DNA of 32,000 bases from NCBI GenBank assembly GCA_903902915.1, contig CAIUWR010000039.1, positions 7,594 to 39,593 on the forward strand, read 5' to 3'. The notes below the pieces were generated by a model. It did no database searches and was not told the DNA's origin. It worked only from the letters and a program-made list of their open reading frames with translations. The translations under genes were made by a program, and so were the position numbers. Shown here one piece after another: positions 8,102 to 32,000 of the stretch (its first letter is position 1; each line of letters opens with the position of its first letter). Origin of the DNA: an uncultured Hyphomicrobiales bacterium (GTDB lineage: Bacteria; Pseudomonadota; Alphaproteobacteria; Rhizobiales; Beijerinckiaceae).

Positions 8102-8125
8102 AACAAACGAACGAAGGAGCGCTCC

Positions 8126-8863: not shown

Positions 8864-8911
8864 CGATGGCGCGAGGGATGCGGGCGACGGACCGTCGCCC
8901 CTCCAGGCGTC

Positions 8912-10280: not shown

Positions 10281-10811
10281 ATGAAAAACTCTGTTTTGGC
10301 CGCCTCCTTGCTGATGGTCTTCGGTTCGGCCGCCATGGCCAAGGAATATCCCGTCGGCAAGCCGCAGACTGTGGCGGGCATGGAGATCGGCGCGGTCTAT
10401 TTGCAGCCCATCGAAATGGAGCCCGCAGGCATGATGGGCGACGCCAAGGATACGGACGTGCATCTGGAGGCCGACATCAAGGCCGCCAAGGACAACAAGA
10501 ACGGCTTCGCCCAGGGCGACTGGATCCCCTATCTCAGCGTCACCTACGAGCTGAGCAAGGCGGGCGACGCGACGGTGCAGAAGGGCCCCTTCATGCCCAT
10601 GGTGGCCAACGACGGCCCGCATTACGGCGACAACGTGAAGATGATGGGTCCGGGCAAATATCTGCTCAAGCTGACCGTCTCGCCCCCCGACGCCCACAGC
10701 CATTTCGGCCGCCATGTGGACAAGGAGACCGGCGTTGCGCCATGGTTCAAGCCATTCACCGTCGAATACGAATTCACCTATGCCGGCACCGGCAAGAAAG
10801 GCGCTTACTGA
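10281..10811 (+). CDS. ftrA: periplasmic iron-binding protein, P19/FtrA family
   Basis: ATG at 10281 with GGAGA upstream and a signal peptide (MKNSVLAASLLMVFGSAAMA). EYPVG...MEIGAVYLQPIEMEP...HLEADI...GPHYGDNV is P19/Tpd-like. It lies in the genomic context of an FTR1 permease. Confidence 0.85.
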   Translation: MKNSVLAASLLMVFGSAAMAKEYPVGKPQTVAGMEIGAVYLQPIEMEPAGMMGDAKDTDVHLEADIKAAKDNKNGFAQGDWIPYLSVTYELSKAGDATVQKGPFMPMVANDGPHYGDNVKMMGPGKYLLKLTVSPPDAHSHFGRHVDKETGVAPWFKPFTVEYEFTYAGTGKKGAY

Positions 10812-10813
10812 TC

Positions 10814-12205
10814 ATGTCCACACGCGCAGTCCGCAACAAAGCCCGGATTCGTGACGCGCTGGTGGCTGGCGTGTGCCTGTTCGCCGCGCCAGCCTTGGCG
10901 GCTGACGCCCGGCCAGACTGGCTGCCGGAGGGATCGCTGGGCACGGGCCTGCCCATGCTGGCCGATCCGGGCGGCTTGCGGGCGGCGCTGTGGGAGCGCG
11001 GCTTCAAATATCAGCTGAACTATCTGGGCGATCTGTTTCACAACCAGAGCGGCGGGATCAGGGCAGGCACGGCCTATAGCAGCCGCCTCGAACTGGTGGT
11101 GGATGGCGACCTCGAGAAGGCCGCAGGCTGGAGCGGGGCGGCGGTGCACGCCAACGCCTATCAGATCAACGGGTCAGGCCCGACGCGCTCCTTTGTTGGC
11201 AATCTCATGCCGATCAGCGACATCGAGGCCCTGCCCGCGACGCGGCTCTACGAGGCCTGGATGGAGCAGAAATTCGCCGATGGCAAACTCGCCGTGCGGG
11301 CGGGGCAGCTGGGGGCGGATACGGAATTCATCGTCAGCAACTACGCCGCGCTGGTCATCAACGGAACCTTCGGCTGGCCCGCCATCACCACCAATGATTT
11401 GCCCAGCGGCGGCCCCGCCTATCCGCTGGCGACCCCCGCCGTGCGGCTGGGCTTCTACCCAACGGACAAGCTGAGCGTGCTGGTGGGCCTCTTCAACGGC
11501 GACCCCGCCGGTCGCAGCAATCCCGATCCCCAGGTCGCCAACCGCTATGGGCTGAATTTCCGCGTCAGCGACCCCGCTTTCATGATCAGCGAAGTCCAGT
11601 ACAAATACGGCGACGACAAGAGCCCCGAGGGGCTTTCAGGCACGGCCAAGCTTGGCGCCTGGTCGCATTTCGGCAAATTCTCCGATCAGCGTTATGACGT
11701 GGATGGCCAGTCGCTCGCCCTCGGCGCGGGGGAGGCCCTCCAGCGCCGGGGAAATCGCGGCGTCTATGGCGTGGTGGATCAGCAAGTTTATCGCCTCGCG
11801 GACGATCCGGCCAAGGGCGTCGGCGTCTTCGCGCGGCTCGCGGGCGCGCCCTCCGACCGCAATCTCGTCGATTTCTATGCGGACGCGGGCGTGCTGGTCA
11901 CCGGCATGATCCCCAATCGCCCCGACGACGCGGTCAGCGCGGGCGTCGCCTATGCGCGGATCAGTCGCGCCACGGTTGGGCTCGATCAGGATATGATCAC
12001 CGTCAGTGGAATCCCCGGTCCCGTCCGGTCGTCGGAGATTTTGCTGGAGGCGACCTATTCGGCGCAGATCGCGCCCGGCTGGACGCTTCAGCCTAACGTC
12101 CAGTATGTGGTGCGTCCGGGCGGCGGAGCCCCGGACCCCTACGACCCGACCCGCACCTTGCGAAACGCAGCCGTCTTCGGCCTGCGCACCACGTTGAAGT
12201 TCTAG
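10814..12205 (+). CDS. carbohydrate-selective porin, OprB family
   Basis: Start MSTRAV at 10814, 2 nt after the ftrA stop, with a signal peptide ending in ALA. GFKYQLNYLGDLFHNQSGG...LYEAWMEQKF...GQLGADTEF and the C-terminal ...FGLRTTLKF are typical of OprB-type beta-barrels. Confidence 0.85.
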   Translation: MSTRAVRNKARIRDALVAGVCLFAAPALAADARPDWLPEGSLGTGLPMLADPGGLRAALWERGFKYQLNYLGDLFHNQSGGIRAGTAYSSRLELVVDGDLEKAAGWSGAAVHANAYQINGSGPTRSFVGNLMPISDIEALPATRLYEAWMEQKFADGKLAVRAGQLGADTEFIVSNYAALVINGTFGWPAITTNDLPSGGPAYPLATPAVRLGFYPTDKLSVLVGLFNGDPAGRSNPDPQVANRYGLNFRVSDPAFMISEVQYKYGDDKSPEGLSGTAKLGAWSHFGKFSDQRYDVDGQSLALGAGEALQRRGNRGVYGVVDQQVYRLADDPAKGVGVFARLAGAPSDRNLVDFYADAGVLVTGMIPNRPDDAVSAGVAYARISRATVGLDQDMITVSGIPGPVRSSEILLEATYSAQIAPGWTLQPNVQYVVRPGGGAPDPYDPTRTLRNAAVFGLRTTLKF

Positions 12206-12226
12206 GCTCCGAAGGTGCTGACATCC

Positions 12227-12562
12227 ATGCGCAAGCTTCCGCTCCTCATCGCCACCCTCATCTGCGCCGCGCTGGCGAACGCAGGCGCGCGCGCCGAGGA
12301 TCCGACCTTCCGCATCGAATTCAAGGATGGCGTCGTCACCCCCAACCGCTTCGAGGCGCCCGCCAAGACGCGCATCGTGCTCGAACTGGTCAATACAGGC
12401 GAAACGCCCGCCGAATTCGAAAGCAAGGAGCTGCGCAAGGAGAAGGTGCTGGCGCCTGGAACCAGTTCGACCCTCGTGCTGCGCGCTCTCGATCCCGGCG
12501 AATATGACTTCATCGACGATTTCCATCCCGAGGCGCCCGCCTCCGTGCTGGTGGCGAAGTGA
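12227..12562 (+). CDS. ftrB: periplasmic cupredoxin-like protein, FtrB-like
   Basis: Signal peptide, then a small beta-rich domain (RIVLELVNTGETPAEFES...PGEYDFIDDFHPE). Its position immediately upstream of the FTR1 permease matches FtrABCD systems. Confidence 0.7.
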   Translation: MRKLPLLIATLICAALANAGARAEDPTFRIEFKDGVVTPNRFEAPAKTRIVLELVNTGETPAEFESKELRKEKVLAPGTSSTLVLRALDPGEYDFIDDFHPEAPASVLVAK

Positions 12563-13422
12563 TGAACACGCAGCTTGGCAATATCGTCTTCATCGTCTGG
12601 CGCGAGAGCATCGAGGCGCTGCTGGTGATCGGCATCCTCAACGCCTGGCTGTCCCAGCAAGGCGACGCCGCCCGGCGTGGGCGCGGCTTCCTGTGGGCGG
12701 GCGTGGGCGCGGGGCTCGTCACGGCTTTTGCGCTGGGCGCGGGGCTGATCAGCCTCGGCGACCATCTCGATCCCGACACGATGGAGCTCTACCAGACCGG
12801 CCTCGTGCTGCTGGCGGCCTTGCTCATCGTGCAGATGGTGTTCTGGATGCGCAAGCAGGGCCGCACGCTGAAGCGTGATCTGGAAGGCGCCTTGCAGGGC
12901 GCCGCCGACCGCAACAACTGGTGGGGCGTCTTCGCGCTGGCGGCCATCGCCGTGGCGCGCGAGGGCAGCGAAACTGTGGTGTTTCTCGCAGGCACGATCT
13001 CGGCCGCGCGCAATGGCGCGCTGGGCGTGGCCATTGGCGCGGCCGCTGTGGGCCTCGCCATTGCGGTGGCCACCTATGGCGTACTGCAACTGGGCGGGCG
13101 CTATCTCACTTGGCGCACCTTTTTCCGCATCACCGAGACCATGCTGCTGTTGCTGGCGGGCGCCCTGCTGGTGACCGCGACCGACAAGCTCATGGGGCTC
13201 GACCTGCTGCCTCCCCTGTCGGGGCGCCTGTGGGACACCTCATTCGTCGTGCCCGACAGCGGTCCTGTGGGCGGGCTGATCGCTGGCCTCACCGGCTATC
13301 GGGCGAAGCCCGATCTGTCGCAGGTGCTGGCGCTCGCGCTCTACTGGGGCGCCATGCTATGGCTTCTGCGCCCCAAGGGCGCCAAAAGCCCCACCCAGAC
13401 CAAAGGCCTGAAGGCCGCCTGA
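12559..13422 (+). CDS. ftrC: FTR1/EfeU-family high-affinity iron permease
   Basis: Two REXXE motifs (WRESIEALL and AREGSETVVF) in a polytopic membrane protein. Its start overlaps the ftrB stop (GTGATG). Confidence 0.9.
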   Translation: MMNTQLGNIVFIVWRESIEALLVIGILNAWLSQQGDAARRGRGFLWAGVGAGLVTAFALGAGLISLGDHLDPDTMELYQTGLVLLAALLIVQMVFWMRKQGRTLKRDLEGALQGAADRNNWWGVFALAAIAVAREGSETVVFLAGTISAARNGALGVAIGAAAVGLAIAVATYGVLQLGGRYLTWRTFFRITETMLLLLAGALLVTATDKLMGLDLLPPLSGRLWDTSFVVPDSGPVGGLIAGLTGYRAKPDLSQVLALALYWGAMLWLLRPKGAKSPTQTKGLKAA

Positions 13423-13424
13423 CC

Positions 13425-14837
13425 ATGTTGAACCCCGCGCAGAGGACCACGCGCTTCGATCTGGCGCTGGCGCAGGCCGGCGAATGGTTGAAGACCCATC
13501 AGACGCTGATAAGGCGTCTGCAATGGCTTGTGGTGGGCGTCTACGCCTTTCTCATCGTCACGCCCGCGTTGCTGCCCCTGCCGGGCCGCGCGGCGCATAT
13601 CTGGAACGACCTCACCCTCTTCGCCCAATTCGCCTTCTGGGGCATATGGTGGCCCTTCGTGCTCGTCAGCATGGCGCTGGTCGGGCGGCTTTGGTGCGGG
13701 CTGCTCTGCCCGGAGGGCGCGCTTTCGGAAGCCGTCGCCGAGCGAGGACGCGGCCTCGCCGTGCCGCAATGGATCCAGTGGCGCGGCTGGCCCTTCGTGG
13801 CCTTCGCCATGACCACGGTCTATGGCCAGATGACGAGCGTCTATCAATATCCCGGCCCCGCTTTGGTGGTGCTGGGCGGCTCCACGGGGGCCGCAATGGT
13901 GGTGGGCTATCTGTGGGGCCGCAACAAGCGGGTCTGGTGCCGCTATCTGTGCCCGGTGACCGGAGTCTTCGCCCTCATCTCCAAACTGGCGCCCTTCCAT
14001 TTCCGCGTGGACACCAGCGCCTGGCTCGATTGGGCCAAGCCGCGCGGCGAGCAGCCCGAGACCCTGAACTGCGCCCCTTTGGTGGCGGTGAAGACCATGC
14101 GCGGCGCCAGCCAGTGCCATATGTGCGGACGATGCAGCGGCTTTCGCAGCGCCGTGACCCTGGCGCGCCGCTCGCCCAACGCCGAAATCGTGGATGTGGC
14201 GGGGCTGCGGCCCAAGCCCTGGGACACGATGCTGATCGTCTTCGGCCTGATGGGACTGGCGGCGGGCGCCTTCCACTGGGGCGCGAGCCCCCTCTATGTG
14301 CAGATGAAGCAGACGCTGGCCGAATGGCTGGTCAACCAGGACATCATGTGGCCGCTGGAGCCGATCCTGCCATGGTTCGTTCTGACCAATTATCCCGCCG
14401 TGAACGATGTGATGACGCCGCTCGATGGCGCGGTGCTGATCGCCTATATCCTCGGCTTCATGCTGGCGCTGGCCCTCCCCGTATGTCTGTGCCTCGTGGG
14501 CGCCACGCTGGCCAGCGGACGCTTCGCCATGGCCCGCCTGCATCATTACGCGCAAGCGCTGATCCCCATGGCGAGCTGCGGCGTGTTCCTCGGCCTCTCC
14601 TCCCTCACCGTGACCATGCTGCGCGCCGAAGGCCTCGCGCTGGACTTCGTGGGCGTGCTGCGCGCCCTGCTGCTGGGCGGCGCCGTGCTCTGGTGCCTGC
14701 AACTGGCCTGGCTGATCAGCGCCAAATATGCGCCCGGCATCGCGCGCCGTCTGGCCGCCACCCTGTTCGTGGGGGCGGCGGCGGGTCTGGGCGCCTTCGC
14801 CTGGGCGAGCCTGTTCTGGCGGCTGGCCCGGCTTTGA
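13425..14837 (+). CDS. ftrD: membrane polyferredoxin (NapH/MauN-like 4Fe-4S protein), FtrD-like
   Basis: ATG at 13425, 2 nt after the ftrC stop. Cys clusters CGLLCPEG, CRYLCPVTG and CHMCGRCSGF are embedded among transmembrane segments. Confidence 0.8.
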   Translation: MLNPAQRTTRFDLALAQAGEWLKTHQTLIRRLQWLVVGVYAFLIVTPALLPLPGRAAHIWNDLTLFAQFAFWGIWWPFVLVSMALVGRLWCGLLCPEGALSEAVAERGRGLAVPQWIQWRGWPFVAFAMTTVYGQMTSVYQYPGPALVVLGGSTGAAMVVGYLWGRNKRVWCRYLCPVTGVFALISKLAPFHFRVDTSAWLDWAKPRGEQPETLNCAPLVAVKTMRGASQCHMCGRCSGFRSAVTLARRSPNAEIVDVAGLRPKPWDTMLIVFGLMGLAAGAFHWGASPLYVQMKQTLAEWLVNQDIMWPLEPILPWFVLTNYPAVNDVMTPLDGAVLIAYILGFMLALALPVCLCLVGATLASGRFAMARLHHYAQALIPMASCGVFLGLSSLTVTMLRAEGLALDFVGVLRALLLGGAVLWCLQLAWLISAKYAPGIARRLAATLFVGAAAGLGAFAWASLFWRLARL

Positions 14838-14978
14838 GATTGCTCGAAACCTGCAATTCCACCCATTGAAAAGACTGATCAATTTTTGAACTTCATGAAG
14901 TTTTAATCACTTCTACCTTAAACTTTTCGCCATAAGCGCCGTCTTGAATGTGAGCCCGGAGCTTCCTCGACAGGCGTC

Positions 14979-15716
14979 TTGAACATGATGATCTCTTCCG
15001 TCGGCCCGTCCCTGTTTCCCCAGACAAGCGCCCTTGTCGCCAACCTCAAGGCCAATGGCCTTTCGGTCGACAAGGCGGCGCTGGTCGCCACGGACGCCAA
15101 GGCGGCCGTCGCACAGGTTGGCAGCGTCAAACGAGGCCCGGAAGGCAAAACCGCGCTGCGCGACGCGCTGAAAGAGCGCATCAACGCAGATGTGACGGCT
15201 GGCAAACTCTCGGCTGACGACGCCAACGCGATTTTCCAGACGTTCGCGCAAATGGACCCCGCCAATCAGAACGGCGGTCAGACGTCAGGCGGACAGGGCG
15301 GCGCACCCGGCGGCGGCGCTGGCCAACAGGCCCCCCAGGACGACGACGCGACGACGACGACGAAGGGTGCGGGCGCCAAGACGGCAAAGGGCGCTGGCGG
15401 ACCCAAGGGCGGCGGTGGGGGCGGCGGTGGCGGCGGCGACTCCTCCAGCAAAACGGTCCTGAGCGAAACCATCACCGTCAGCGGCGCTTTGGAGACGATC
15501 ACCACACTTTATACGGACGGCACCTCCGAGACGAAAACGCAGGCGGCCACCTCCGGCACAACGAGCGACACCTACAGCAAAAACGCCATCGCCGATCAGG
15601 CGAAGGCCAGCACGGCGTCAACCGACAGCAATGCGGCGAATAGCGTCGTCAGCAAGGTGCAGAGCTACTTGTCCACGATCCAGCCTGGCTCCCTTTTTGA
15701 TATTCTGGTGCAATGA
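14979..15716 (+). CDS. Gly/Thr/Ala-rich hypothetical protein
   Basis: 245-aa ORF with an AT-rich upstream region. It contains a GGGGGGGGGG run and a T/S-rich tail. No family was recognised. It is the last GC-rich gene before the compositional break. Confidence 0.45.
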   Translation: MNMMISSVGPSLFPQTSALVANLKANGLSVDKAALVATDAKAAVAQVGSVKRGPEGKTALRDALKERINADVTAGKLSADDANAIFQTFAQMDPANQNGGQTSGGQGGAPGGGAGQQAPQDDDATTTTKGAGAKTAKGAGGPKGGGGGGGGGGDSSSKTVLSETITVSGALETITTLYTDGTSETKTQAATSGTTSDTYSKNAIADQAKASTASTDSNAANSVVSKVQSYLSTIQPGSLFDILVQ

Positions 15717-15924
15717 GCGGGCAGGCTTGACCGCCCTGTTTAGATTAGCCTGGATTCGCATATATCTGGCGCTGGTCCAGCTCCGAAATTTCCATGCGCG
15801 ACGCCGTCCTCGACCTGTGAGCCCGTCCCGAACGACGGGCGGCGCTGCTTGTGGGAACGAGCCGCTCAGGTGAGCGACGACAGAACCGTTCCGCGCGCCA
15901 GATATTGCCAAAATTTGATTTTGC

Positions 15925-15979
15925 TGGTGCTGCGAGACAGGATTGAACTGTCGACCTCTCCATTACCAATTAAATATAG
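15925..15979 (-). repeat. att-type direct repeat, copy 1: 3' 45 nt of tRNA-Thr(GGU) (positions 32-76 including CCA) plus 10 nt of extension
   Basis: The reverse complement is TTGGTAA-TGGAG-AGGTC-GACAG-TTCAATC-CTGTC-TCGCAGC-A-CCA. This folds as anticodon loop (GGT), 3' anticodon stem, variable loop, complete T-arm, 3' acceptor strand, discriminator and CCA. The 5' half of the tRNA is absent. It is identical to 22966-23010. Confidence 0.85.
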
Positions 15980-16024
15980 CGTAGCAAAAACAGCTATTTT
16001 AAAGGGGTTTTTGAGGCTTGCAGC

Positions 16025-16790: not shown

Positions 16791-17525
16791 ATGGACGCCG
16801 AGGGCAAACGTAATCCGACTTGGACCCGAGATGAGCTTATCCTCACTTTGGACTTCTATGTCCAATGCCAAGGGAACCCCCCAGCCAAAGATAGCAAACC
16901 GATAAAAGAGCTATCGGATTTATTGAATGGATTGGGTAATGCTTCCAACAAAATTTCGGACAAGTTCCGGAATATAAATGGCGTATATATGAAAATTATG
17001 AATTTCAGACGCTTCGATCCTCAATATGCGTCTAAAGGCGCAGTAGGTCTAAGCCGGGGTGGAAAGGGCGATGAGGAAGTTTGGAACGAGTTTATAAATC
17101 GACCTCTTGTTCTCAAAGCGGTGGCTTCGTCAATTCGTGCCAACCTATCGCAAGAACCCGAAACTCAAGAACAGCTTTCAGAAGAACTAGAAATAGCCGA
17201 GGCTGAAGAAGGTCATATTCTAACTCGAATTCATTTATTTCGGGAACGTAATCGTGAATTGGTCAAGAAGAAAAAAGCCGACACATTGAAGCGCACGGGC
17301 TCCTTATCTTGTGAGGTGTGTTCCTTTGACTTTGCAAAAGCATACGGCGTTAGGGGGGAAGGCTTTGCTGAGGTTCATCATACAAAACCGCTACACACCC
17401 TCCAGCCAGGCACCAAAACCAAGCTTGAGGACCTTGCAGTTCTCTGCGCTAACTGCCACCGAATGGTGCACGCTAAAAAACCTTGGCTTGAGATTATCGA
17501 GCTAAAAAATATGCTCGAAAAGTGA
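16791..17525 (+). CDS. HNH endonuclease, McrA/COG3183-like putative restriction nuclease
   Basis: The C-terminal region (CEVCSFDF...GFAEVHHTKPL...LAVLCANCHRMVH) is a CxxC...HH...CxxCH HNH zinc-finger nuclease motif arranged as in E. coli McrA. The N-terminal region (RNINGVYMKIMNFRRFDP...EEVWNEF) resembles predicted HNH restriction enzymes. Confidence 0.8.
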   Translation: MDAEGKRNPTWTRDELILTLDFYVQCQGNPPAKDSKPIKELSDLLNGLGNASNKISDKFRNINGVYMKIMNFRRFDPQYASKGAVGLSRGGKGDEEVWNEFINRPLVLKAVASSIRANLSQEPETQEQLSEELEIAEAEEGHILTRIHLFRERNRELVKKKKADTLKRTGSLSCEVCSFDFAKAYGVRGEGFAEVHHTKPLHTLQPGTKTKLEDLAVLCANCHRMVHAKKPWLEIIELKNMLEK

Positions 17526-19873: not shown

Positions 19874-20041
19874 CCCGATCCAGGATGTGCTAGCCAAATT
19901 CAAGCTATGAAAAAAACGGGACAGGACCAAACTATCTAGCTGCCCCGTTGTTCTGTAAAAGTTCTAAAAGCGCTTCTCCTGTATTCTATAAAAATGAGGT
20001 TGGGAATGGTTCTTGAGCTCACACTAGAGAGGAACTTCATT

Positions 20042-21058
20042 ATGGATACCATCGAAAGCAACAATATTAAGTCTGTCGGAGAATTCGTCTCCTACATCCG
20101 CAATCGGATTCAAGAAGCAAACCGTAATTGGATGGAGATTGCTCAGGCGTTCGCCGAGGCGGAGGAAATGTACGGATCAGGAAGCGAGCGGTTTAAGCAA
20201 CTACGTGAGCAGACGAATTTCAGTCGCAGTAAAATAGCTAAACTTCTAGCTATCGTGTCGTCAGAGCGACTGAAAAAGTATGCCGTCCAACTTTCCTCCG
20301 TTCAAAGTTGGGGTACACTCTACGCCATCGAGACTTTGACGGACGACCAATTCAATAAGCTCAAGGAACAATATAAATTTGATGACCCGTATACCGTTGC
20401 TCCTTTCATAAGTCAGACGGATGTAGATAAAATTCGGAGGGGAGCTGTGGAGCGGTCGATGTTCCGAGGCTACGCCGTTATTCAGGTTGACGACGAAGCC
20501 GTTAAGGGTGGCCTTCTTTCAGGCGCTGAGTTTGAGGAGCTTGAGAGGCTTTTAGCAAAAATCGAGCAGCTGTCTTCATATGTAAAATTGAAGCGATCTG
20601 ATGCTGACGAAAAGCAGGAAATAAGTCGTATGAATCAAATCTACGAAAAAGTGAAGCAGGTAACCCGTCGTCATTATTTAGAAGCCGTCAATGCAACTCT
20701 TGAGAGGCGGGTAAAATACAAGGGTGAGAGCCAGACAGCCTATGAAGTTCGTTGTTTTGGGAAAAACAAATCGGAGTTGATGGGTGACCTTCATTTCAAC
20801 GCTGAGGAAGCCTTCAAGTGGATTGGCGCTAACTATGATATGGCCACTTTTTATAATGAAGCTGAAGAAGAGGTGAGTAAGGCTGAGAAGGCTAGGATGA
20901 ATAAATACGCCAATAAGGTGCTGAGCCGTCCAGCCATTATCAAGGAGCCTGTTTATGAAGAGGCAGAGACAACAGCTGCGCCGAAGAATTGGCTCTTTAA
21001 GGGGGTGGGCTCTCAAAAGGCGTCGTTCGAGAAATCGAAGTTCTCTTTTTCTGCTTAA
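20042..21058 (+). CDS. hypothetical protein
   Basis: ATG at 20042 with GAGAGGA upstream. It is 338 aa with helical, charged composition and is followed by a bidirectional terminator. Confidence 0.65.
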   Translation: MDTIESNNIKSVGEFVSYIRNRIQEANRNWMEIAQAFAEAEEMYGSGSERFKQLREQTNFSRSKIAKLLAIVSSERLKKYAVQLSSVQSWGTLYAIETLTDDQFNKLKEQYKFDDPYTVAPFISQTDVDKIRRGAVERSMFRGYAVIQVDDEAVKGGLLSGAEFEELERLLAKIEQLSSYVKLKRSDADEKQEISRMNQIYEKVKQVTRRHYLEAVNATLERRVKYKGESQTAYEVRCFGKNKSELMGDLHFNAEEAFKWIGANYDMATFYNEAEEEVSKAEKARMNKYANKVLSRPAIIKEPVYEEAETTAAPKNWLFKGVGSQKASFEKSKFSFSA

Positions 21059-22086: not shown

Positions 22087-22356
22087 ATGAGCCTTGGAAA
22101 ACAAGCCAAAACCCTCACCAAGCCCCAGATCGACGCCGTCTTGGGCTATCTCGCCAAGACCCGCTACCCAGTCCGTGATCGGGTCATTTTCCTACTTTCG
22201 GTGAAGGCTGGCCTCAGAGCCAAAGAGATTGCTTCGCTTACGTGGTCTATGGTGACAGACGCCGAAGGAGCGCTGGCAGACATCATCAGCCTTACCGATA
22301 TTGCCTCCAAGGGGAGAGGAGGGCGTGTGACCGTATTCGATGCCATTTTCCCGTAG
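22087..22356 (+). pseudogene. truncated small tyrosine recombinase (N-terminal 80 aa of the catalytic domain), paralogous to 25795..26361
   Basis: LTKPQIDAVLGYL...RDRVIFLLSVKAGLRAKEIASLTW...SKGRGGRV aligns with LTDKQLKQVLSHC...RDRAIVLFSFLAGLRAKEIAALTL...SKGRKARRV of the intact 188-aa gene. Similarity stops at about 22329 and the HxxR and Tyr motifs are missing. Confidence 0.7.
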
Positions 22357-22817
22357 CGAGAATTCTGGACTATCCAGACGTTCAAGTCAGCCAGCGTCGC
22401 CCCTGTGACCTCTTTGATCCTTATCGTTCCAAAGAATTTCTCAGTGTGTTTAAGAAACTGGATTCTGGTGAGCATCGTCGACTTGATGTTACCCATCGCC
22501 TCGATGCCCGCCACATATTCGCCGATAGCGACCGTGACCCGCTTTGAATGAAGGTCCTGCCCGTTGGCGACCTTGAGAAACGTCTTGTTGAAGAGGTCAT
22601 TGGCGAAGGCGAACGCCTGATGCTCGTCGGTGGTTTTCGTCGAGCAAGAAACGTAGCCTTTGCTATTGGGAACTTTGACCCGACAGAACCAAGTCGGTTT
22701 CACATAATCTGCCCTTTTGAAAAGATAGATTGCCCCGTCTTTGAAGGTTCGGCTCTCTAACTCAGTCTTCGCTTTACGCTCTGTTTTTGTTTTTGATACT
22801 TTGGTCGTTTCGTCCAT
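22323..22817 (-). pseudogene. integrase N-terminal fragment (arm-binding plus SAM-like core-binding region), catalytic domain missing
   Basis: GAIYLFKRADYVKPTWFCRVKVPNSKGYVSCSTKTTDEHQAFAFA...IGEYVAGIE...FLKHTEKFFG...IKEVTGATLADL...ASNTVTR has the layout of tRNA-targeting integrase N-termini. The rest of the ORF (22164-22322) is merely antisense to the plus-strand fragment. Confidence 0.65.
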
Positions 22818-22965: not shown

Positions 22966-23020
22966 TGGTGCTGCGAGACAGGATTGAACTGTCGACCTCT
23001 CCATTACCAAAAAAATATAG
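22966..23020 (-). repeat. att-type direct repeat, copy 2: 3' 45 nt of tRNA-Thr(GGU) plus 10 nt of extension
   Basis: 22966-23010 is identical to 15925-15969. The next 10 nt match 8/10. The 5' half of the tRNA is again absent. Confidence 0.85.
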
Positions 23021-24896: not shown

Positions 24897-25436
24897 ATGA
24901 ACCAGCGCCCCTACACCGAAAACACAAAACGGAACAAGTTGGACTCTGCGCGATACAATGAAGCGCTTCTAGCTTGGCTCGGCGAACACAGCACACTATG
25001 GAATGTAGTTGTGACTTGGCATGTACCGGAGACAATGCGACGACATTACAGGGGCTATGATGAAGATTGGCTAGCGCGGGAGCTGACAAGATACTTCAAC
25101 AAGGTTGACCGACGAATATACAAGGCAGGTCTCAAAAATAGAGGCATGAGGCTGCCACGAATCATCACATTAGAGTACAATGAGAGCGTGGGCTGGCATG
25201 CACACGGCCTGTTAGATTGTGCTCCTGGCAAGAACGAAGATGAGACACTGGAGCTACTGACTAAACTATGGCGCAAACAGACTGACCGATTCGCAACCGA
25301 CAGGTTTGAGAAGCATCTTGTGATAGGGCAATACGATAATGGCAAGGCTCTCCCATATATTATCAAGCGAATAGATAGGCAAAATGAACAGGCACACGGC
25401 ATATTAGATTTGAACAACACCTATATTCCTGACTGA
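24897..25436 (+). CDS. putative HUH-motif replication-initiator-like protein
   Basis: Motif order: VVVTWHV (motif 1-like), GWHAHGLL (H-hydrophobic-H), then LPYIIKR (Tyr motif). The size, 179 aa, is small for a Rep. Confidence 0.45.
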   Translation: MNQRPYTENTKRNKLDSARYNEALLAWLGEHSTLWNVVVTWHVPETMRRHYRGYDEDWLARELTRYFNKVDRRIYKAGLKNRGMRLPRIITLEYNESVGWHAHGLLDCAPGKNEDETLELLTKLWRKQTDRFATDRFEKHLVIGQYDNGKALPYIIKRIDRQNEQAHGILDLNNTYIPD

Positions 25437-25621
25437 TCACCACAGAACGAAGCGGGACGGTACCGCTATAAAAGCATAGCGTCGTTGCGTGTGTTAGGAA
25501 CTCTCACAGTTGGCTAAATGCTGCTGTAGCTAAAATATTGCCTAAAAACCATTCTAACTATACCTACCATGTGAAAACTCAAAGTTGATTGATAAACTCA
25601 CTTTTCCAAAAAGAAAATACA

Positions 25622-25638
25622 TCAAACGGTCCGTTTGA
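25622..25638. promoter_or_regulatory. 17-nt perfect palindrome TCAAACGG-T-CCGTTTGA in an AT-rich 358-bp intergenic region
   Basis: Read directly. It lies upstream of the recombinase gene and has an operator-like geometry. Confidence 0.4.
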
Positions 25639-25794
25639 ATGAGGTACTGAAGAATGTCATGTAATGTGTGTTCTCTGATATTCCTCAGTAACCTATTGAA
25701 AACACTGGTCACTCATCTATCAAAAAAATAGGTAGGAATCTAGAAAGTCAGACAATATTTTTTACGCTATAAAAAATGACATTCAGGTGCTGAG

Positions 25795-26361
25795 ATGAAG
25801 CAAGCAAGAACGCTCACAGACAAACAGCTCAAGCAAGTACTATCCCACTGCTCCACCCGCCACCATGCAGCAAGAGATCGCGCTATAGTGCTGTTCAGTT
25901 TCTTAGCTGGCCTGCGTGCCAAGGAGATAGCAGCGCTCACTTTAGCGAATGTGGTAGCGGACGATGGCAAAGTCCGTGATGAGTTCACTTTGTCACCGCA
26001 ACAGTCGAAGGGGCGTAAAGCCAGACGGGTCTTCATCAATGACCGACTCCAGAAAGAAATCACTCTCTATCTCAAGCAAGTGAAGCTACGAGCAATATGC
26101 CCAGCTCTTTTCCAATCCCAAAAAGGAAGTCACTTCTCCGCCAACACCATGTGCCAGTTGCTGCTACGCATTTATGATGAGGCAGGCTTTTCGGACGCAA
26201 CTAGCCATACTGGCAGGAGGTCAATGATTACGGCATTGGCAGCAAAGGGCATCGGGGTGCGTGTATTGCAGACATTAGCAGGACACTCATCCATCAGCAC
26301 AACGCAACGTTACATAGACGTGAACGACCAGCAGTTGCGGGCGGCAGTGGAACTAGCTTGA
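25795..26361 (+). CDS. small tyrosine recombinase (catalytic domain only, 188 aa)
   Basis: All catalytic signatures are present: AGLRAKEI (Arg I), SKGRKARRV (Lys beta-hairpin), SHTGRRS (HxxR) and GHSSISTTQRYI (His/Tyr). There is no N-terminal core-binding domain. Confidence 0.85.
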   Translation: MKQARTLTDKQLKQVLSHCSTRHHAARDRAIVLFSFLAGLRAKEIAALTLANVVADDGKVRDEFTLSPQQSKGRKARRVFINDRLQKEITLYLKQVKLRAICPALFQSQKGSHFSANTMCQLLLRIYDEAGFSDATSHTGRRSMITALAAKGIGVRVLQTLAGHSSISTTQRYIDVNDQQLRAAVELA

Positions 26362-26511
26362 GAACACCTCTATGTCGCTCAAAGCCTTGTTGCATTTAAG
26401 CTAGAATAATCCATATTTACACATGTCGTACACTGGCAGTTACGCGGGACTAAACATGAAGCTACGCCAATACCCCCAGCACCGCTCTAATACCTTGCCA
26501 GGAGCAGCGTT

Positions 26512-27564
26512 ATGAAAGCGGCTATTCCTGATTTTCGACACCAATCCAGTCGATTCTCTGGATTCAAAATGTTTTATGAGTTTCATTACACGACCAATGA
26601 TTGCTCACCTGACATTGCAGTTGAGACGTGGCTGGCTAATAAGCTTGATTTTGATTTTGAACAAAGATGCGTACTGGCACTGTTTCAGGGCGCTGTGTAT
26701 TCAGGACCAATAGAGACAATCTTTGCGACTCAGTTTCCTAAGCTGACAGGGTCAATGGACAATCTCATATCCTTCTACAAAGATAATAAGGCTAGGATGG
26801 TCTTTTCGTCTGATTGCAAATACCGAAAGGTTTTTTTTGAACAGTTCCTCACCTCAGTGGCCAAATCCGTGTCGCACTACGGTAGCCTTGGCCAGCTGGT
26901 CGCTTCCTGCTTTGATTCAGACGATAGAACCGCGAACTATCGCAAGCTTCAGCGTCTGTGTGTTGACGAATGGTACCAATGGGGTCGTATGGGTCACTGG
27001 TGTTTTGCTGAGGCACTGTATAGCTTTGTCAAAGCACCTATCACTCCACCAACGATGGAGTTCATCGACGGTAAAAGTCATAGAGCGGGTTGGGCATTTT
27101 GCCTTAACCGTGATGATTTAACCCACGATAAAATATCACGAGCTGATTGTGATTATCTAGAACAAGAAGCTGCGAGATTCATTGCTAATCTCAAACACCC
27201 AAATGCAAACTACTTTACGTTAGAGACAGCCTGCTGCAACTACAAACGTCAACATAAAGGCAGTCGTTATGGAGGCTGCTACATTGACGAGCAGTACGAT
27301 GAAATAATATGGGCGCAGGAGAAATGGGCTGAATATAGCTCCTTGTGGGACACTTATATGCTGGGCAGGCAGGCGGTCCTCCCTGCTGCCCTGCTATATG
27401 AAAACAACACCCACCAATCTCAACCACGCTCCGAAGCAGCTTACCAAAAAAGTTGGACGAAATCCCTGAGCCAATATGGTAGGATTCCAAGAGTTGAGGC
27501 TTGGTTTGCCAACGAACCCCAAGTTTGGACTGACATCAAGAATCTGCCATTTGCTATCCACTAA
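26512..27564 (+). CDS. Trp/Tyr/Cys-rich helical protein; candidate aGPT-pyrophosphorylase / amino-acid:DNA transferase-like enzyme (function hypothetical)
   Basis: 350-aa ORF with coding-like composition. Its stop codon overlaps the convergent 1184-aa gene (CTAA/TTAG at 27561-27564). The functional guess comes only from gene neighbourhood (kinase plus dioxygenase) and the all-helical appearance. Confidence 0.7.
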   Translation: MKAAIPDFRHQSSRFSGFKMFYEFHYTTNDCSPDIAVETWLANKLDFDFEQRCVLALFQGAVYSGPIETIFATQFPKLTGSMDNLISFYKDNKARMVFSSDCKYRKVFFEQFLTSVAKSVSHYGSLGQLVASCFDSDDRTANYRKLQRLCVDEWYQWGRMGHWCFAEALYSFVKAPITPPTMEFIDGKSHRAGWAFCLNRDDLTHDKISRADCDYLEQEAARFIANLKHPNANYFTLETACCNYKRQHKGSRYGGCYIDEQYDEIIWAQEKWAEYSSLWDTYMLGRQAVLPAALLYENNTHQSQPRSEAAYQKSWTKSLSQYGRIPRVEAWFANEPQVWTDIKNLPFAIH

Positions 27565-30500
27565 GTCATACCAAAATAGCTCTTCATCTCAACCAATATC
27601 AGAGCCTGATGTTCGTCGGTGTTGTTCTCCATCGTCTTGACGCGACTAAAAAACGTTGGGGAGCCACATATGTTTCGGATTTTAGTGCGCTTGGCTTTTA
27701 TGAACTGTTCTGGCTGATTATCTTTACGTTTCTTATGACGAGCCTTGAGAACGGCGTCTGCGGCAACCACCTCAATGATTTTGAGTGAAACGCCCATCTC
27801 ATCAAGTGCTTCAAGAAAGCTGAAGTTAAACAAACGGTCTCCCTCAAAAATAACGTTTGATTTTATCTGCGTGAGAAAACTGAGTGCTACAGGCTGTACC
27901 GCCATGTCTAAACGGTCTGTGCCAGGAAAGTCTTCCCCATCCACATACTCGCCAAGAATGTAACAATCCAAATCCTTGTTATAAAGCGCCTTCAAGCCCT
28001 TGCCCGGCTTCAAACTTTCCCACTTGCCTGTTTCCTTTAGAAACGCTTTCATAAGCGTAGATTTACCAGTTGCGGGCAGTCCATTAATCGCCAGCACCTT
28101 CTTCTTCGTTTTAACACGAACGCTACTCTTCGGCTGCGCTACGTAATATGGTGGTATATCCTCAGCCTTTATCCCCTTCATTGGTTTCCCAGTTGAGATT
28201 GAGACGTATGGCAATGCATCGGTAATATAATCAAACCTCACAGTGCGCCCATCTTTCCTGAAATGAGCTAATCCAAGTTCATATGCTGATTCCTCATTTG
28301 GCTGGTATCTAGCATCAAGCTTAGGTCGGTTGATTACGCCGACGCAACTACTGACTGGGTGAAAACTTCGCACAGACAGAGATTTGTCTAACGCCTCAGC
28401 TTGATTGTCGGTGTCACCCTTTATGGATATCCCCCAAAGATACGAACTATGCTCCCGGCAAGCATCAAAACCACGCCTGATAACTCTTTGCTCAAAACTA
28501 TCTACGGATAGAATCGCATCTTTAGAAGAACCAGTCAGCCCATATATCCCATCAATGTCATCACGCAGATATACGATAGGGGTGTTTGGAGGGAAATACT
28601 CAGCGGGATGCATAGAGCTTATCTGGCTCCCAAAACCTACGTTCTTGCTATTTTTTTTGACTGTGATCGTTGCTGTTTTACGCAGGCTTGCATAACCATC
28701 CTTGCCCAGCCACTCTGTTATCTGTTCATTATTCCAACCCTGTTTCTGTAGGTCTACTATCTTCGTCGCCAACCGAACTTGATATGGCTTGTCCATTTCC
28801 ACACCATAGCTCTCTAACAAGCTCTCACCCGGTACGAATAGCGTTACACGGCGGGGGTCTATGTTCTGCTGTTTCAGATAGCGAAATATCTTTATAGGAC
28901 GGGGGTGTGCACCATCTGGCGATATCATCACGGCAATCTTGTAGCTGTTCCACTTGAAGTTTGGTCTCTCAGATTTGGGTGGATAGGCTTTCTCAGTGTT
29001 CTCTTTATATGCGAGCGTTGTTTTGGTGTAGCATACAACCGACAGACGACGCCCCTCCCCATTGAGTTGTTGGACGCCGTGGACCTTGCGGGAGTTAGCA
29101 ACAAAGACATCGCCATCACCAACTCTGAATGCGCAGCGATATTGGGGTATGACAAAATAACCACCCTCATATTTGCCTTCATTGAATACAGCGATGGTCG
29201 TCAAGCCACTGTTATGGTCACCGCTATCAATATGATAGTTCATGGCGGGCATATCATCGCCATAACGGTTGACGGCTAATGTGGTGAACACGCTGCCACC
29301 AAGCCGATGTTCCCGCAGGATCCGTGAGCTTAGGAACTTGGCCTGTTTCTGATAATCCGCCTTAGCCACCCTGTAATAGACAGTGTCACAACGCTTGGCC
29401 AATGCGAAGAACCCAGCTTTCACGTCCTCACTTGCGACCCCAGCTAAAGCGAACTGAGGCACTTTCGTCGTCTTATCGGGTATCCAGCCATAAGTGGATG
29501 ATGGGATGGGTTCACTACGTGGACGATCCCAATGCCCTTTTTTGCCATCACGCTCTTCGACCCACTTCTCATAAGTGCGCCCTTCATTAGACAGGCGATA
29601 TTTTAGGCCGCGCTTCTCAAAGTTGGCGATGGTCTTTTGGCTTATGGGGTGCGGCGATTCAGTTATCCTAGCACCACTTGTATCTTGGATGGCGCGGATG
29701 GATGTCACTGCTTCGGTACGGGCAGCGTCAGTGAAGATTTTTCTCTTCACGGCGCCAATGACAGGACGACGCCCAATCGTTAGGTCATATGGGCCTTCAA
29801 CAATAAAGTCCTTGTTGATGATGTCAGCATCAAAGAGATAATCGTAGTCCTTGTGCGTCGGCGTCTTGCCTATCAAATCGGCAGCAGCACGGTCCCCCAA
29901 GTCCTGCTCTGATATATAGAGCCTGACGTCGCCATCTGAGGATAACAGAGTGGCCGCGCGGCTGATGCTGAGTTCGCGTGGTGTGCTTGCTGTTGGCTTC
30001 TTCAGTTTGCCGGCTAGCACGATTAGGACAGCGTCTGCCACCATCTCAGCAATCTGGGTGGGTATCGCCTGTGCTAACAGCCGCGCCTTATCATTCTCTT
30101 TCGCTTTGATAGTGAATGCGTCGGGCATACCAATGAGGGCACTCATCTCTGAGGTGGTGAACATCCTGTCTTCTGCGGGATGTAGACAGCCATTGTCTCC
30201 AAGTTGCTTGGCTTTATAAAAGTCCAAGTTTGCACAGGGAGTGTCCCAAGCTGCCCGCATCACTTGGTGGCCTTTACTCTTTGGATAACCGCAGTCAGTG
30301 ACTGCCCTCAGCCCAAGACTTGCAAGTGTCGTCACTTTGGCTGGCTCTTTCCGCAAGAGCTTCCGTGCTGCCCACAAAGCCTTGCTGCGATGTGTCTGCT
30401 TCGTCCAGTAATCAGCATCAGAACGTCTGGTATCAACCTTACTCAGCACTGCCCTTACCGTGCTGTGGTCACTTGGCATTGGTAGTGGAAAGGCAAACTC

Positions 30501-31115
30501 CAACGCTTCGTCGGTGGTGACTTTGGCTTTTGCTGCTTGTTCCCTATGGACTACAAACACCACGCCATAGGATTTGGACACGGCGGAGCCATACTGGGCC
30601 GCGTCAACCACCCGACAGAATACAAAATAGTCGCGCTCTAGGTGTCCATCGCCCATTTTTTTATAGCGTAAAAAATCTACAGACCTATTGAATCGCGTCA
30701 GGTTCTCATTCGCCAGCAACTCCGGCGGCACATAACCCACAGCGACTTTAGGAGAGAGGCTGCGGACGATGTTGAAGAAGTCAGACAGCTGGGCGGGTGT
30801 ATTGGCGGTCTTGTCGGCTGGGCTGAGCTGGGCTGAGAAATCCAACAGGTCTAGCACGGCCCCTGCTGGTAGCCCCACCTTGGCCACAAGCTCAGCTCTG
30901 CCCTTCTCTTTGCGGTTGTTGAACCAACGAGCATCGGTGTTGTCGTGGGTGGTAGCAGGGAAGTTCGTGGCGAAGACCGACCTCTCCAAATCCTCTGTTT
31001 CAGTTCCATACAAAATCTGAAACCCTTTTGACCTGTAGGCAAATGCGGTTGTGCCGATTCCTGCTGAAAAGCAGGCAGCTGTGTAGGTGTTTTTCGCCAT
31101 CGCTGTTGCCTTCAT
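27561..31115 (-). CDS. 1184-aa multidomain DNA-modification protein: degenerate C5-MTase-like + TET/JBP-like 2OG-Fe(II) dioxygenase + DxD region + P-loop kinase
   Basis: It is an uninterrupted 3.5-kb ORF. The motifs are listed in the four domain features below. The start is at 31115 or at Met6 (31100). Confidence 0.9.
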   Translation of the reverse strand: MKATAMAKNTYTAACFSAGIGTTAFAYRSKGFQILYGTETEDLERSVFATNFPATTHDNTDARWFNNRKEKGRAELVAKVGLPAGAVLDLLDFSAQLSPADKTANTPAQLSDFFNIVRSLSPKVAVGYVPPELLANENLTRFNRSVDFLRYKKMGDGHLERDYFVFCRVVDAAQYGSAVSKSYGVVFVVHREQAAKAKVTTDEALEFAFPLPMPSDHSTVRAVLSKVDTRRSDADYWTKQTHRSKALWAARKLLRKEPAKVTTLASLGLRAVTDCGYPKSKGHQVMRAAWDTPCANLDFYKAKQLGDNGCLHPAEDRMFTTSEMSALIGMPDAFTIKAKENDKARLLAQAIPTQIAEMVADAVLIVLAGKLKKPTASTPRELSISRAATLLSSDGDVRLYISEQDLGDRAAADLIGKTPTHKDYDYLFDADIINKDFIVEGPYDLTIGRRPVIGAVKRKIFTDAARTEAVTSIRAIQDTSGARITESPHPISQKTIANFEKRGLKYRLSNEGRTYEKWVEERDGKKGHWDRPRSEPIPSSTYGWIPDKTTKVPQFALAGVASEDVKAGFFALAKRCDTVYYRVAKADYQKQAKFLSSRILREHRLGGSVFTTLAVNRYGDDMPAMNYHIDSGDHNSGLTTIAVFNEGKYEGGYFVIPQYRCAFRVGDGDVFVANSRKVHGVQQLNGEGRRLSVVCYTKTTLAYKENTEKAYPPKSERPNFKWNSYKIAVMISPDGAHPRPIKIFRYLKQQNIDPRRVTLFVPGESLLESYGVEMDKPYQVRLATKIVDLQKQGWNNEQITEWLGKDGYASLRKTATITVKKNSKNVGFGSQISSMHPAEYFPPNTPIVYLRDDIDGIYGLTGSSKDAILSVDSFEQRVIRRGFDACREHSSYLWGISIKGDTDNQAEALDKSLSVRSFHPVSSCVGVINRPKLDARYQPNEESAYELGLAHFRKDGRTVRFDYITDALPYVSISTGKPMKGIKAEDIPPYYVAQPKSSVRVKTKKKVLAINGLPATGKSTLMKAFLKETGKWESLKPGKGLKALYNKDLDCYILGEYVDGEDFPGTDRLDMAVQPVALSFLTQIKSNVIFEGDRLFNFSFLEALDEMGVSLKIIEVVAADAVLKARHKKRKDNQPEQFIKAKRTKIRNICGSPTFFSRVKTMENNTDEHQALILVEMKSYFGMT
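27564..28103 (-). other. domain: P-loop kinase-like (aa 1005-1184)
   Basis: Walker A: VLAINGLPATGKSTLM (nt 28056-28082). A hydrophobic strand plus acidic residues (CYILGEYVDGED), then GTDRLD and IFEGDRLF. The size is typical of small nucleotide or nucleic-acid kinases. Confidence 0.65.
28161..28943 (-). other. domain: unassigned region with a GT-A-like beta1 strand and DxD motif (aa 725-985)
   Basis: YKIAVMISPDG...VTLFVPGES...PIVYLRDDIDGIYG (D852-D853-x-D855). The pattern is reminiscent of nucleotide-sugar (GT-A) transferases. Confidence 0.35.
29001..29438 (-). other. domain: 2OG-Fe(II) dioxygenase double-stranded beta-helix core, TET/JBP-like (aa 560-705)
   Basis: NYHIDSGD (H628-x-D630), GGYFVIP, GDGDVFVANSRKVHGV (H679) and GEGRRLSVVCY (R689/R690 about 10 residues after the distal His). 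H628 maps to nt 29232-29234. Confidence 0.7.
29961..31100 (-). other. domain: C5 DNA methyltransferase-like fold with degenerate catalytic motifs (aa 6-385)
   Basis: Motif I-like ACFSAGIGTTAFA and TETEDLERSVFATNFP. The motif IV position reads DLLDFSAQLS (no Pro-Cys). The motif VI position reads PKVAVGYVPPELL (no ENV). The motif VIII position reads AAQYGSAVSKSYGVVFVV (no QxRxR). The motif IX/X-like region (MFTTSEMSALIGMPDAF and AQAIPTQIAEMVADAV) is retained. Confidence 0.6.
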
Positions 31116-31172
31116 TTGCCGTTTAGCTCAGGCTAGCTGGTAGTTGTAGGCTGTTCAAGACCGGGGCATTCG

Positions 31173-32000
31173 ATGGAAAGAAACTCACCACGTCCACGAG
31201 AGTTGGCGCAAAGGGTCATAAAGTCCGTCAAGGACAGTGTCGCGGCAAGCTTGGACACTTGCTTCGCTTTTGCAGAAGCTTGGACACTCTATTTAGAAGC
31301 TGGATGGACCGATAAGGACCTCCTCAGCTTTCTCAACCAACTCCATGCAGCACGTATTGGGCCAGACCCCGTAACACTAGGCAGGGACAAAGAGGACCGG
31401 CTCATTATCGGCACATCGTCAGCATCGTTCTACATGATGAAACGCATTGGTGAGAGCGCACTGCTGAAAGACAAAGAAATCAGGACAGCCTGCCTCATCA
31501 ACAGCCGCAGTAGCCTATACGACCTCATACAGCTCTATGAAGAGGCATGTGAGAGAGGCAGCGGGTCTGCTGTAAAAAAAGAAGAGCGGGCTAGAGAAAA
31601 AGTGCTTTCGCTGCTGACCGCGCACGGTGAAGGATTGACACGTAAGTTGATTGCTGAGGCACGTAAACAGCTTAGCAAACAGCGCCAATCCCATAAACCC
31701 AAAGACCTCCTACATAAAGCGCAGCCAAATGAAGGTGGCTTTTCGCTAGCAGAGCTGCTGGAGAGCGGCGCAAGTTTTCAAGAAATACTCCTGACGCCAT
31801 CTGCATTGGTTCTGGATGCGATTGAAGAGATGTCGATTGCTGATTTGGAGGAGCGGCTTGGATTGTGCAACCTGTCGTCTGGAAATTGTATTGAGCGTTG
31901 TTCAAGAATTCTGGCATCCCCACTTTATATATGCCTTTGTGTCAGCGCCCCACTTTTCATCGATTTCGACGAGGATGGCGCTAACGAGCCGCATGAGAGA
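31173..32000 (+). CDS. hypothetical protein, 5' part only (ORF runs off the right end of the window)
   Basis: ATG at 31173, then 276 codons without a stop to position 32000 (my own translation: MERNSPRPRELAQRVIKSVKDS...). It is absent from the supplied ORF track, presumably because it has no stop. It is divergent from the 1184-aa gene across only 57 bp. Confidence 0.55.
   Translation, partial: MERNSPRPRELAQRVIKSVKDSVAASLDTCFAFAEAWTLYLEAGWTDKDLLSFLNQLHAARIGPDPVTLGRDKEDRLIIGTSSASFYMMKRIGESALLKDKEIRTACLINSRSSLYDLIQLYEEACERGSGSAVKKEERAREKVLSLLTAHGEGLTRKLIAEARKQLSKQRQSHKPKDLLHKAQPNEGGFSLAELLESGASFQEILLTPSALVLDAIEEMSIADLEERLGLCNLSSGNCIERCSRILASPLYICLCVSAPLFIDFDEDGANEPHER

Follow-up and report, generated by a model that had tools for sequence, protein, structure and literature searches.

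What is the function of the 350-amino-acid (aa) protein whose gene lies tail to tail with a large gene carrying both a TET/JBP dioxygenase and a kinase domain in the DNA of an uncultured Hyphomicrobiales bacterium? The window is a stretch of 32,000 nucleotides of contig CAIUWR010000039.1, and the first-pass annotation, working from size and position, had put this open reading frame (ORF) forward as the missing amino-acid:DNA transferase (AADT) of a thymidine hypermodification pathway. We judge it likely that the ORF does encode a functional AADT (the name used for it below) of a TET-linked subfamily, and that it takes part in a predicted route from thymine through 5-hydroxymethyluracil (5hmU) and 5-phosphomethyl-dU (5-PmdU) to an amino-acid or amine adduct. 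To our knowledge, thymidine hypermodification by a kinase and an AADT has been demonstrated in virulent phages only, and for versions that start with TET there have been predictions from metaviromes alone.

The ORF is a genuine gene under purifying selection and not a chance reading frame, with a dN/dS of 0.14 when compared with two relatives that are 92% identical in aa sequence. We found 93 homologs of its product, every one of which matches Pfam family PF18724. The gene and the 1184-codon gene on the opposite strand have 4 nt in common (CTAA), so that their stop codons overlap exactly as had been claimed (Table 1), and the convergent 4-nt overlap recurs in the related loci L003 (as CTAG; 78% aa identity), L008, L009, and L012. 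The annotation had also supposed that no terminator separates the pair, and no terminator-like site was detected at the junction; the region 25400–31400 has 3 such sites vs. 5.7 expected. The window’s second ORF of 350 aa (20006–21058) is unrelated to AADT.

Although the protein has no family that can be recognized by eye, as was said of it at first, Pfam recognizes one at once. It matches PF18724 (ADDT, formerly aGPT-Pplase2, i.e., clade 2 of the aGPT-Pplase families) with an E-value of 1.3e-18 and 68 bits (cut-off 26.2), and phrog_3271 of the PHROGs collection with an E-value of 2.7e-30; it has no match in NCBIfam or PADLOC. PF18724 is also matched by PaMx11 gp46 (97 bits) and CBA120 orf248 (195 bits), and BLASTP aligns AADT with the latter at 28% identity over 281 aa (E 4e-15). 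CBA120 orf248 is a homolog of ViI gp247, a serine:DNA transferase (PMC8989533).

The predicted structure agrees with this placement. An AlphaFold2 model built with 54 homologs as input has a predicted local distance difference test (pLDDT) score of 96 and is all-alpha with 19 helices, in line with the helical protein rich in Trp, Tyr, and Cys that had been described (W 3.1%, Y 5.7%, C 3.1%). When the model was compared with the Protein Data Bank (PDB) by Foldseek, the sole significant match, taking the top two places, was 8z2n, the structure of PaMx11 gp46, also called PUGT (probability 1.0, TM scores 0.55/0.65, 304 columns); all remaining matches have E > 3. The active site is conserved as well. 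None of the residues E238, T239, C241, and C242 varies among 54 sequences of 41–93% identity, and in both hhalign and MAFFT alignments E238, T239, and C242 fall residue for residue on E243, T244, and C247 of PUGT. In that enzyme the metal on thymine O4 is held by Glu243 and Thr244, and the nucleophilic attack on C6 has been proposed to come from Cys247 (PMC11472151); M6 gp51 and ViI gp247 require the matching Cys and Glu and lose their activity when these are mutated (PMC8989533). PUGT R94 likewise aligns with R105 of AADT.

The neighborhoods of AADT homologs point in the same direction. Homologs with 41–61% identity sit in contigs of T4-like phages (gp23, UvsY, UvsW, clamp, and clamp loader), in a co-directional cassette of a TET/JBP gene, a short N6/N4-methyltransferase (MTase)-like gene, the ADDT gene, and a clade-3 P-loop kinase gene. 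Among 46 IMG/VR loci, a kinase homolog lies on the same strand within 1.5 kb downstream of the AADT gene wherever there is enough flanking DNA (39 of 39 viral loci). TET/JBP was found upstream of the gene in 25 of 26 loci, and the short MTase-like gene accompanies it in 30 of 37. The metagenomic protein P0113 (1449 aa; locus L062, 1476–5825, Logan DRR337536), which came out of an exhaustive search, unites MTase-like, TET, TAGT-like, clade-3 kinase, and ADDT domains in one polypeptide; its ADDT part lies downstream of the kinase and is 60% identical to AADT over 344 aa. The annotation had named two results that would speak against its reading, and both checks came out in favor of it: AADT is related to the aGPT-Pplase/AADT families, and its homologs are linked to TET/JBP and P-loop kinase genes. 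By its profile hidden Markov model, modeled fold, predicted catalytic residues, and linkage, AADT is a member of the transferase family.

Within the phage cassettes themselves, the short gene annotated as “N6_N4 MTase” (L004, 9394–10053; L006, 9261–10004) has a Pfam match that covers its last 50 residues alone, with the unusual motif SPPCY in place of SPPY or DPPY. In 20 loci (18 of them from IMG/VR) the kinase gene is followed by that of an unannotated GT-A-like protein of 284–319 aa (motif FIDADI), and no relationship of this protein to the middle domain of the window’s fusion protein or to the TAGT profile was detected. In Caulobacter phage Cr30 there are a clade-3 kinase, with 42% identity, and a partial match to AADT.

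The convergent partner had been described as a TET/kinase fusion. Both of those domains are present, but the protein also has a C5-cytosine-MTase-like domain, apparently dead, and a glycosyltransferase domain, and its kinase belongs to clade 3 (Table 1). This four-domain architecture is rare, with six clusters at 90% identity, and a tblastn search of plasmids with the fusion gave no match. The N-terminal domain reaches 46–51 bits against PF00145 (cut-off 22) and matches PDB entry 8yf3 at E 2.5e-6. No Cys occurs in aa 58–135, where the motif IV Pro-Cys would lie, in 7 of 7 close homologs, the site reading DLLDF[ST]A[QH]L; VSKSY stands where the motif VIII QxRxR is expected, and QxRxR is lost in all 7. 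The motif VI ENV is ENL in the window’s fusion, its Glu is replaced by Q in P0099, and the motif is absent from the wider family of MTase-like–TET–TAGT fusions (900–1005 aa), where the motif IV Cys is missing from five of six members (the exception, P0114, has ECS). Because the motif IV Cys and QxRxR are gone, and given the established chemistry of C5-MTases, the domain should be unable to methylate, and we think it is probably a noncatalytic module that targets the protein to DNA. If so, a TET enzyme carrying a dead C5-MTase domain would be a notable case in which the scaffold of an enzyme has found a second use in targeting DNA. A conserved pseudo-MTase module N-terminal to TET appears to characterize a family of proteins of ~900–1450 aa (P0113–P0125).

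The TET/JBP domain scores 44.6 bits against PF12851 (cut-off 34.9). Its iron triad, H628-x-D630 and H679, and the 2-oxoglutarate (2OG)-binding Arg at R689/R690 are invariant and lie in the most conserved block of the fusion. The third domain has no direct Pfam match at E ≤ 10. A phmmer search with it against 1.84 billion representatives found 39 relatives; 8 of the 10 that were scanned match PF20691, the TET-associated glycosyltransferase (TAGT), at E ≤ 0.001, and four reach the 27.5-bit cut-off. The domain aligns with these relatives from end to end, the family-invariant DD falling on D852–D853, and D852 is invariant in seven fusions. A variable insert of ~45 aa in this domain is deleted in P0095 and P0096. 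In the last domain the Walker A motif GLPATGKST is invariant, and there are matches to AAA_33 and Ploopntkinase3; it is presumed to be a 5-hydroxymethylpyrimidine DNA kinase.

Taken together, these parts suggest the following pathway. The fusion would bind DNA, probably through its MTase-like domain, the TET/JBP domain would convert thymine in DNA to 5hmU, and the clade-3 kinase would convert 5hmU to 5-PmdU. AADT would then flip the base out, with Cys242 attacking C6 while E238 and T239 hold a metal or water at O4; loss of the phosphate would leave an exocyclic 5-methylene, to which an amino acid or polyamine would add through an amine or hydroxyl nucleophile. This chemistry of base flipping, C6 attack, and nucleophile addition is established for M6 gp51, ViI gp247, and PaMx11 gp46 (PMC8989533, PMC11472151), and we infer from the conserved residues that it applies to AADT. 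More speculatively, the TAGT-like domain might glycosylate residual 5hmU as a competing branch, or decorate the adduct. Phage thymine dioxygenases are linked to P-loop kinases and AADTs (PMC13229309; PMC8989533), and cassettes of TET, kinase, and AADT have been noted in metaviromes (PMC8989533; PMC13229309).

Several observations weigh against this assignment. The identity of AADT to characterized AADTs is only 25–28%, and it belongs to a distinct TET-linked subfamily that is biochemically uncharacterized. Neither the AADT protein nor the profile of 54 sequences retrieved PUGT in sequence-only searches of the PDB, and hhalign of the family profile against gp46 gave a local match at the catalytic motif that is nonsignificant alone (E 0.18). 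The kinase domain narrowly passes the PF18751 cut-off of 27 when scanned alone (27.5 bits) and falls below it within the full protein (22.4 bits), and it lies outside the characterized 5-HMUDK families PF18748 (HMUDK_HMUD1) and PF18747 (HMUD2). CBA120 orf243 matches PF18747 with 497 bits, PaMx11 gp49 scores 18.1 bits against PF18748, below the cut-off of 27, and pairwise BLAST of the domain against these two kinases gives a match at the P-loop alone, or none. The presence of a glycosyltransferase domain means that the end product may differ from a simple amino-acid adduct. Locus L010 has a fusion (73% identical) and its 347-aa partner and no AADT gene; because of this, AADT behaves as an add-on module, dispensable there. 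Finally, thymine is the probable rather than the certain substrate, since in Methylophilales phage Melnitz (below) TET and a clade-3 kinase occur together with a true C5-MTase.

Table 1. Coordinates of the features discussed, by position in the window (aa, residues of the encoded protein)
Feature	Position	Strand	Remarks
55-nt direct repeat, two copies	15925–15979; 22966–23020		96% identical
HUH rolling-circle Rep-like gene, 179 aa	24897–25436	+	weak PF23343 match, E 3.6e-4; IITLEY, HAHGLL, YIIK by eye
20-nt inverted repeat, left arm	25757–25776	+	7-5-7 dyad TTTTTTA-CGCTA-TAAAAAA, 5′ of recombinase gene
Short tyrosine recombinase gene, 188 aa	25795–26361	+	catalytic domain only; R, K, HxxR, H, Y all present
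AGGAG ribosome-binding site of AADT gene	26500–26504	+	7 nt 5′ of ATG, read from sequence
AADT gene, 350 aa	26512–27564	+	ATG start; PF18724; predicted catalytic E238, T239, C242 in LETACCNYKR
CTAA, overlapping stops of convergent pair	27561–27564	both	TAA 27562–27564 on +; TAG, complement of 27561–27563
Four-domain partner gene, 1184 aa	27561–31115	-	MTase-like, TET/JBP, TAGT-like, P-loop kinase
P-loop kinase clade 3, aa 1001–1184	27564–28115	-	PF18751; Walker A GLPATGKST
Divergent TAGT-like GT-A domain, aa 716–1000	28116–28970	-	DxD-type motif D852–D853
TET/JBP 2OG-Fe(II) dioxygenase, aa 376–715	28971–29990	-	PF12851; Pfam core aa 571–698
C5-cytosine-MTase-like domain, aa 1–375	29991–31115	-	PF00145
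20-nt inverted repeat, right arm	30657–30676	-	inside fusion, codons D147–K153 (DFLRYKK)
5′ part of conserved ~348-aa gene	31173–31872	+	divergent from fusion gene

Comparison with characterized systems shows what AADT has in common with them and where it departs. It has the PF18724 match and the two-helix-bundle all-alpha fold of PUGT, a 5-PmdU glycinyltransferase (PDB 8Z2M/8Z2N; PMC11472151), with an identity of ~11–12% in the structural alignment, but it is 60 aa longer and has a conserved C-terminal extension (YGRIPRVEAW). The PUGT substrate-binding residues W146, K150, and D24 have no reliable alignment to AADT, and because the glycine-binding W146 and K150 are not alignably conserved, AADT probably uses a different nucleophile. 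Whereas gp46 is partnered by a dUMP hydroxymethylase and a PF18748-type kinase, AADT is partnered by a TET-bearing fusion. ViI gp247/CBA120 orf248 (serine) and M6 gp51 (a glycine:DNA transferase; PMC8989533) are members of the same family, with the essential Cys and the nearby Glu in common; they are enzymes of virulent phages in which 5hmdU comes from the nucleotide pool and the kinases are of the PF18747/PF18748 types, and the pyridoxal phosphate (PLP) and radical S-adenosylmethionine (rSAM) tailoring enzymes of the ViI, CBA120, and M6 systems are absent here.

A further parallel is with the phage TET/JBP cassettes of 5mYOX clade C1 (PMC13229309; PMC8989533, Fig. 2, sequences 22–25), in which, as predicted here, thymine is hydroxylated to 5hmU post-replicatively by TET and a kinase and an AADT follow. 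In those cassettes the AADT gene is co-directional with the others, whereas here it is convergent with overlapping stops on a chromosomal island; TET, kinase, glycosyltransferase, and an apparently dead C5-MTase-like domain are one polypeptide here, and no ParB activator was seen. A TAGT-like GT-A domain with a DxD motif placed directly behind TET/JBP recalls the base J pathway (JBP1/2 plus a glucosyltransferase) and PF20691, although the TAGT domain of the fusion is too divergent for a direct Pfam match and coexists with a kinase/AADT branch. What differs here from the known systems is the TET-linked AADT subfamily, the fusion of the pseudo-MTase and TAGT domains to the upstream steps, the clade-3 kinase, the convergent gene pair, and the bacterial island. 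About 1.5% of TET/JBP sequences are bacterial (PMC13229309). Two genes should suffice to test the whole route from TET through kinase to AADT, and an uncharacterized AADT subfamily together with an uncharacterized kinase clade possibly makes a new nucleobase adduct, perhaps a glycosylated one.

AADT and the fusion lie on a chromosomal island of ~15 kb in a Beijerinckiaceae-like alphaproteobacterium of the soil and are not part of a phage. Positions 1–16000 of the window have ~65% G+C and host genes such as that for MutL, and from ~16000 on the G+C content is ~48%. The surroundings of the island resemble a Beijerinckiaceae metagenome-assembled genome (MAG), and L012, a locus of 96% identity, is from a MAG of that family. 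A 55-nt repeat splits the low-G+C DNA into two islets, each of which starts with a DUF6641 gene, implying two tandem islets at one attachment site; its second copy probably marks the left end (att) of the AADT-bearing islet. Read on the minus strand, and by eye only, the repeat is like the 3′ half of a tRNA, with a T-arm GACAG-TTCAATC-CTGTC and the end ...GCACCA, and the island appears to have integrated at a tRNA gene; ARAGORN found no tRNA in the window or related loci, and Rfam found no tRNA fragment at the repeats. The order in the second islet is DUF6641, HUH Rep-like, the 188-aa tyrosine recombinase, AADT, the fusion, and a ~348-aa gene, and L012 continues from there with MORN/protease and Sel1 genes and a 447-aa integrase. 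Because the 179-aa protein has HUH Rep motifs, it is suggested that the islet can replicate after excision.

The modification would presumably mark the DNA of the island, of the host, or of both against nucleases, and its role may be protection of a mobile island or a restriction-modification-like mark on the host. Dnd (phosphorothioation) and Dpd (7-deazaguanine) systems are likewise horizontally acquired chromosomal islands with complex DNA-modification chemistry, made by unrelated enzymes; no restriction partner has been identified here, in contrast to them. The second of these roles would make the locus the modification half of a defense island comparable to Dnd and Dpd, in which the host chromosome is marked at specific motifs and a nuclease, for example the 348-aa partner, attacks unmarked DNA, with no protection of a mobile element during transfer. 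The site is chromosomal, no virion genes were seen in the ~15-kb island, the MTase-like domain could give sequence specificity, and the conserved 348-aa partner is linked to the fusion in the window’s lineage, in L010, and in L062. The neighboring islet moreover encodes an HNH endonuclease (16791–17525) whose PADLOC matches include a Type IV methyl-directed restriction model (E 3.8e-6). However, PADLOC gave no match for AADT, the recombinase, or the other scanned island proteins, and generic MTase models only for the fusion; the 348-aa protein matches no nuclease, family, or fold; and the Rep-like gene and recombinases suggest a mobile, replicating element instead. We regard the defense-island role as rather unlikely. 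In either role, the occurrence of these genes on an island of a free-living alphaproteobacterium raises the possibility that hypermodified thymine serves as an epigenetic mark of a bacterium or its mobile elements.

The ~348-aa gene itself (window 31173–32000; L012, 7824–8870; L010, 3507–4550) is always divergent from the fusion, even where AADT is lacking, and in L062 its homolog lies upstream of, and divergent from, P0113. Beyond 31872, 128 nt before window and contig end, the window’s copy no longer follows its relatives, and the ORF is cut short; this may be an artifact of the assembly end. Its product has no Pfam or PHROG match, and its model, a mediocre one with a pLDDT of 64, gave no meaningful Foldseek match.

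A second reading keeps the transferase and changes the base. Here 5-methylcytosine (5mC), made either by a methylase of the host or of other origin or, with unusual chemistry, by the MTase-like part of the fusion, would be oxidized to 5-hydroxymethylcytosine (5hmC), phosphorylated to 5-phosphomethyl-dC, and turned by AADT into an amino-acid-substituted 5-methylcytosine. A C5-MTase-like domain is indeed fused to TET, and phage TETs of clades A and B are 5mC dioxygenases (PMC13229309). Melnitz, a cultured T4-like phage (L063, MZ577097, 4010–8090), has genes for a bona fide C5-MTase (187 bits), TET, a 427-aa protein, and a clade-3 kinase, and this cassette is a possible cytosine-directed analog in an experimentally accessible system. 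Against a cytosine route, the catalytic motifs of the fused domain are missing as described above, motif IV Cys and QxRxR from all seven close homologs, PCQ and ENV from the wider family too; the closest relatives of AADT are found in phage cassettes without a C5-MTase; AADT has kept the Glu and Thr that in PUGT are ligands of the metal on thymine O4; and all characterized AADTs act on 5-PmdU. Because there is no active C5-MTase, the phage relatives lack one, and AADT keeps the O4-metal ligands, we prefer thymine over 5mC as the substrate and consider the cytosine route improbable.

The thymine route could also be embedded in a larger scheme. The recombinase gene has invertase-type NCBIfam matches and lies upstream of AADT, overlapping it in L003. 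A 20-nt inverted repeat, perfect over its whole length (0 expected by chance), brackets the recombinase gene, AADT, and fusion codons 154–1184, and inversion between its arms would, as read from the sequence, bring a TGA directly behind K153 and so end the ORF of the fusion there. If true, such an inversion would put the genes of the recombinase and of AADT downstream of the fusion’s promoter. The site is kept at 20 of 20 positions beside recombinase homologs (68–86% identical) in the metagenomic loci L068, L070, and L076, where the flanking DNA is ~65–67% identical (L068 and L076) or 77% identical (L070), and L003 has a compensated 15-5-15 form of it with the spacer unchanged. Phase variation of the fusion driven by the recombinase is a possibility, not a finding. 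Against it, the five contigs of the lineage show a single orientation throughout, no inverted contig was found, L003 and L010 have one site each, and the 5-bp spacer is unexpectedly flipped elsewhere. That flip, relative to the recombinase gene, is found in L003, L068, L070, and L076; for L070 the homologous DNA on either side was itself read directly, and L076 has the same gene order. The idea that the repeat is conserved as a pair was accordingly rejected for L003 and L010. In L010 (4609–8820) a short recombinase gene directly follows the fusion gene. The fullest version of this scheme would make the island a self-contained, sequence-targeted thymine-hypermodifying machine in a bacterium, in which the pseudo-MTase steers the TET–glycosyltransferase–kinase and, with AADT, a previously unseen glyco- and/or aminoacyl-thymine is made in cellular or island DNA, all switched by a 4.9-kb inversion (25757/30657) through the short recombinase. 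We consider it a long shot.

That AADT is no transferase at all, with the Pfam match reflecting fold only and the protein a DNA-binding or excision protein like the helix-hairpin-helix (HhH) glycosylases or a noncatalytic reader of modified bases, has in its favor that the nearest folds to PUGT are glycosylases and lyases (PMC11472151), that Foldseek lists an 8-oxoG glycosylase (TMt 0.47), that a mycobacteriophage homolog carries the annotation “DNA glycosylase,” and that L010 manages without the gene, but it is very improbable in view of the invariant E-T-x-x-C, the nonsignificance of the glycosylase match (E 4.1, probability 0.25 vs. 1.0 for PUGT), the strict adjacency of AADT to the kinase that would make the leaving group, and the ADDT domain fused downstream of the kinase in P0113.

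At the end of the first islet, two fragments overlap on opposite strands (22087–22356, +, and 22164–22817, -). One is a truncated paralog of the short recombinase and the other, judged from its translation only, an N-terminal piece resembling an integrase of the P4 type; decay of recombinase genes seems to have left both.

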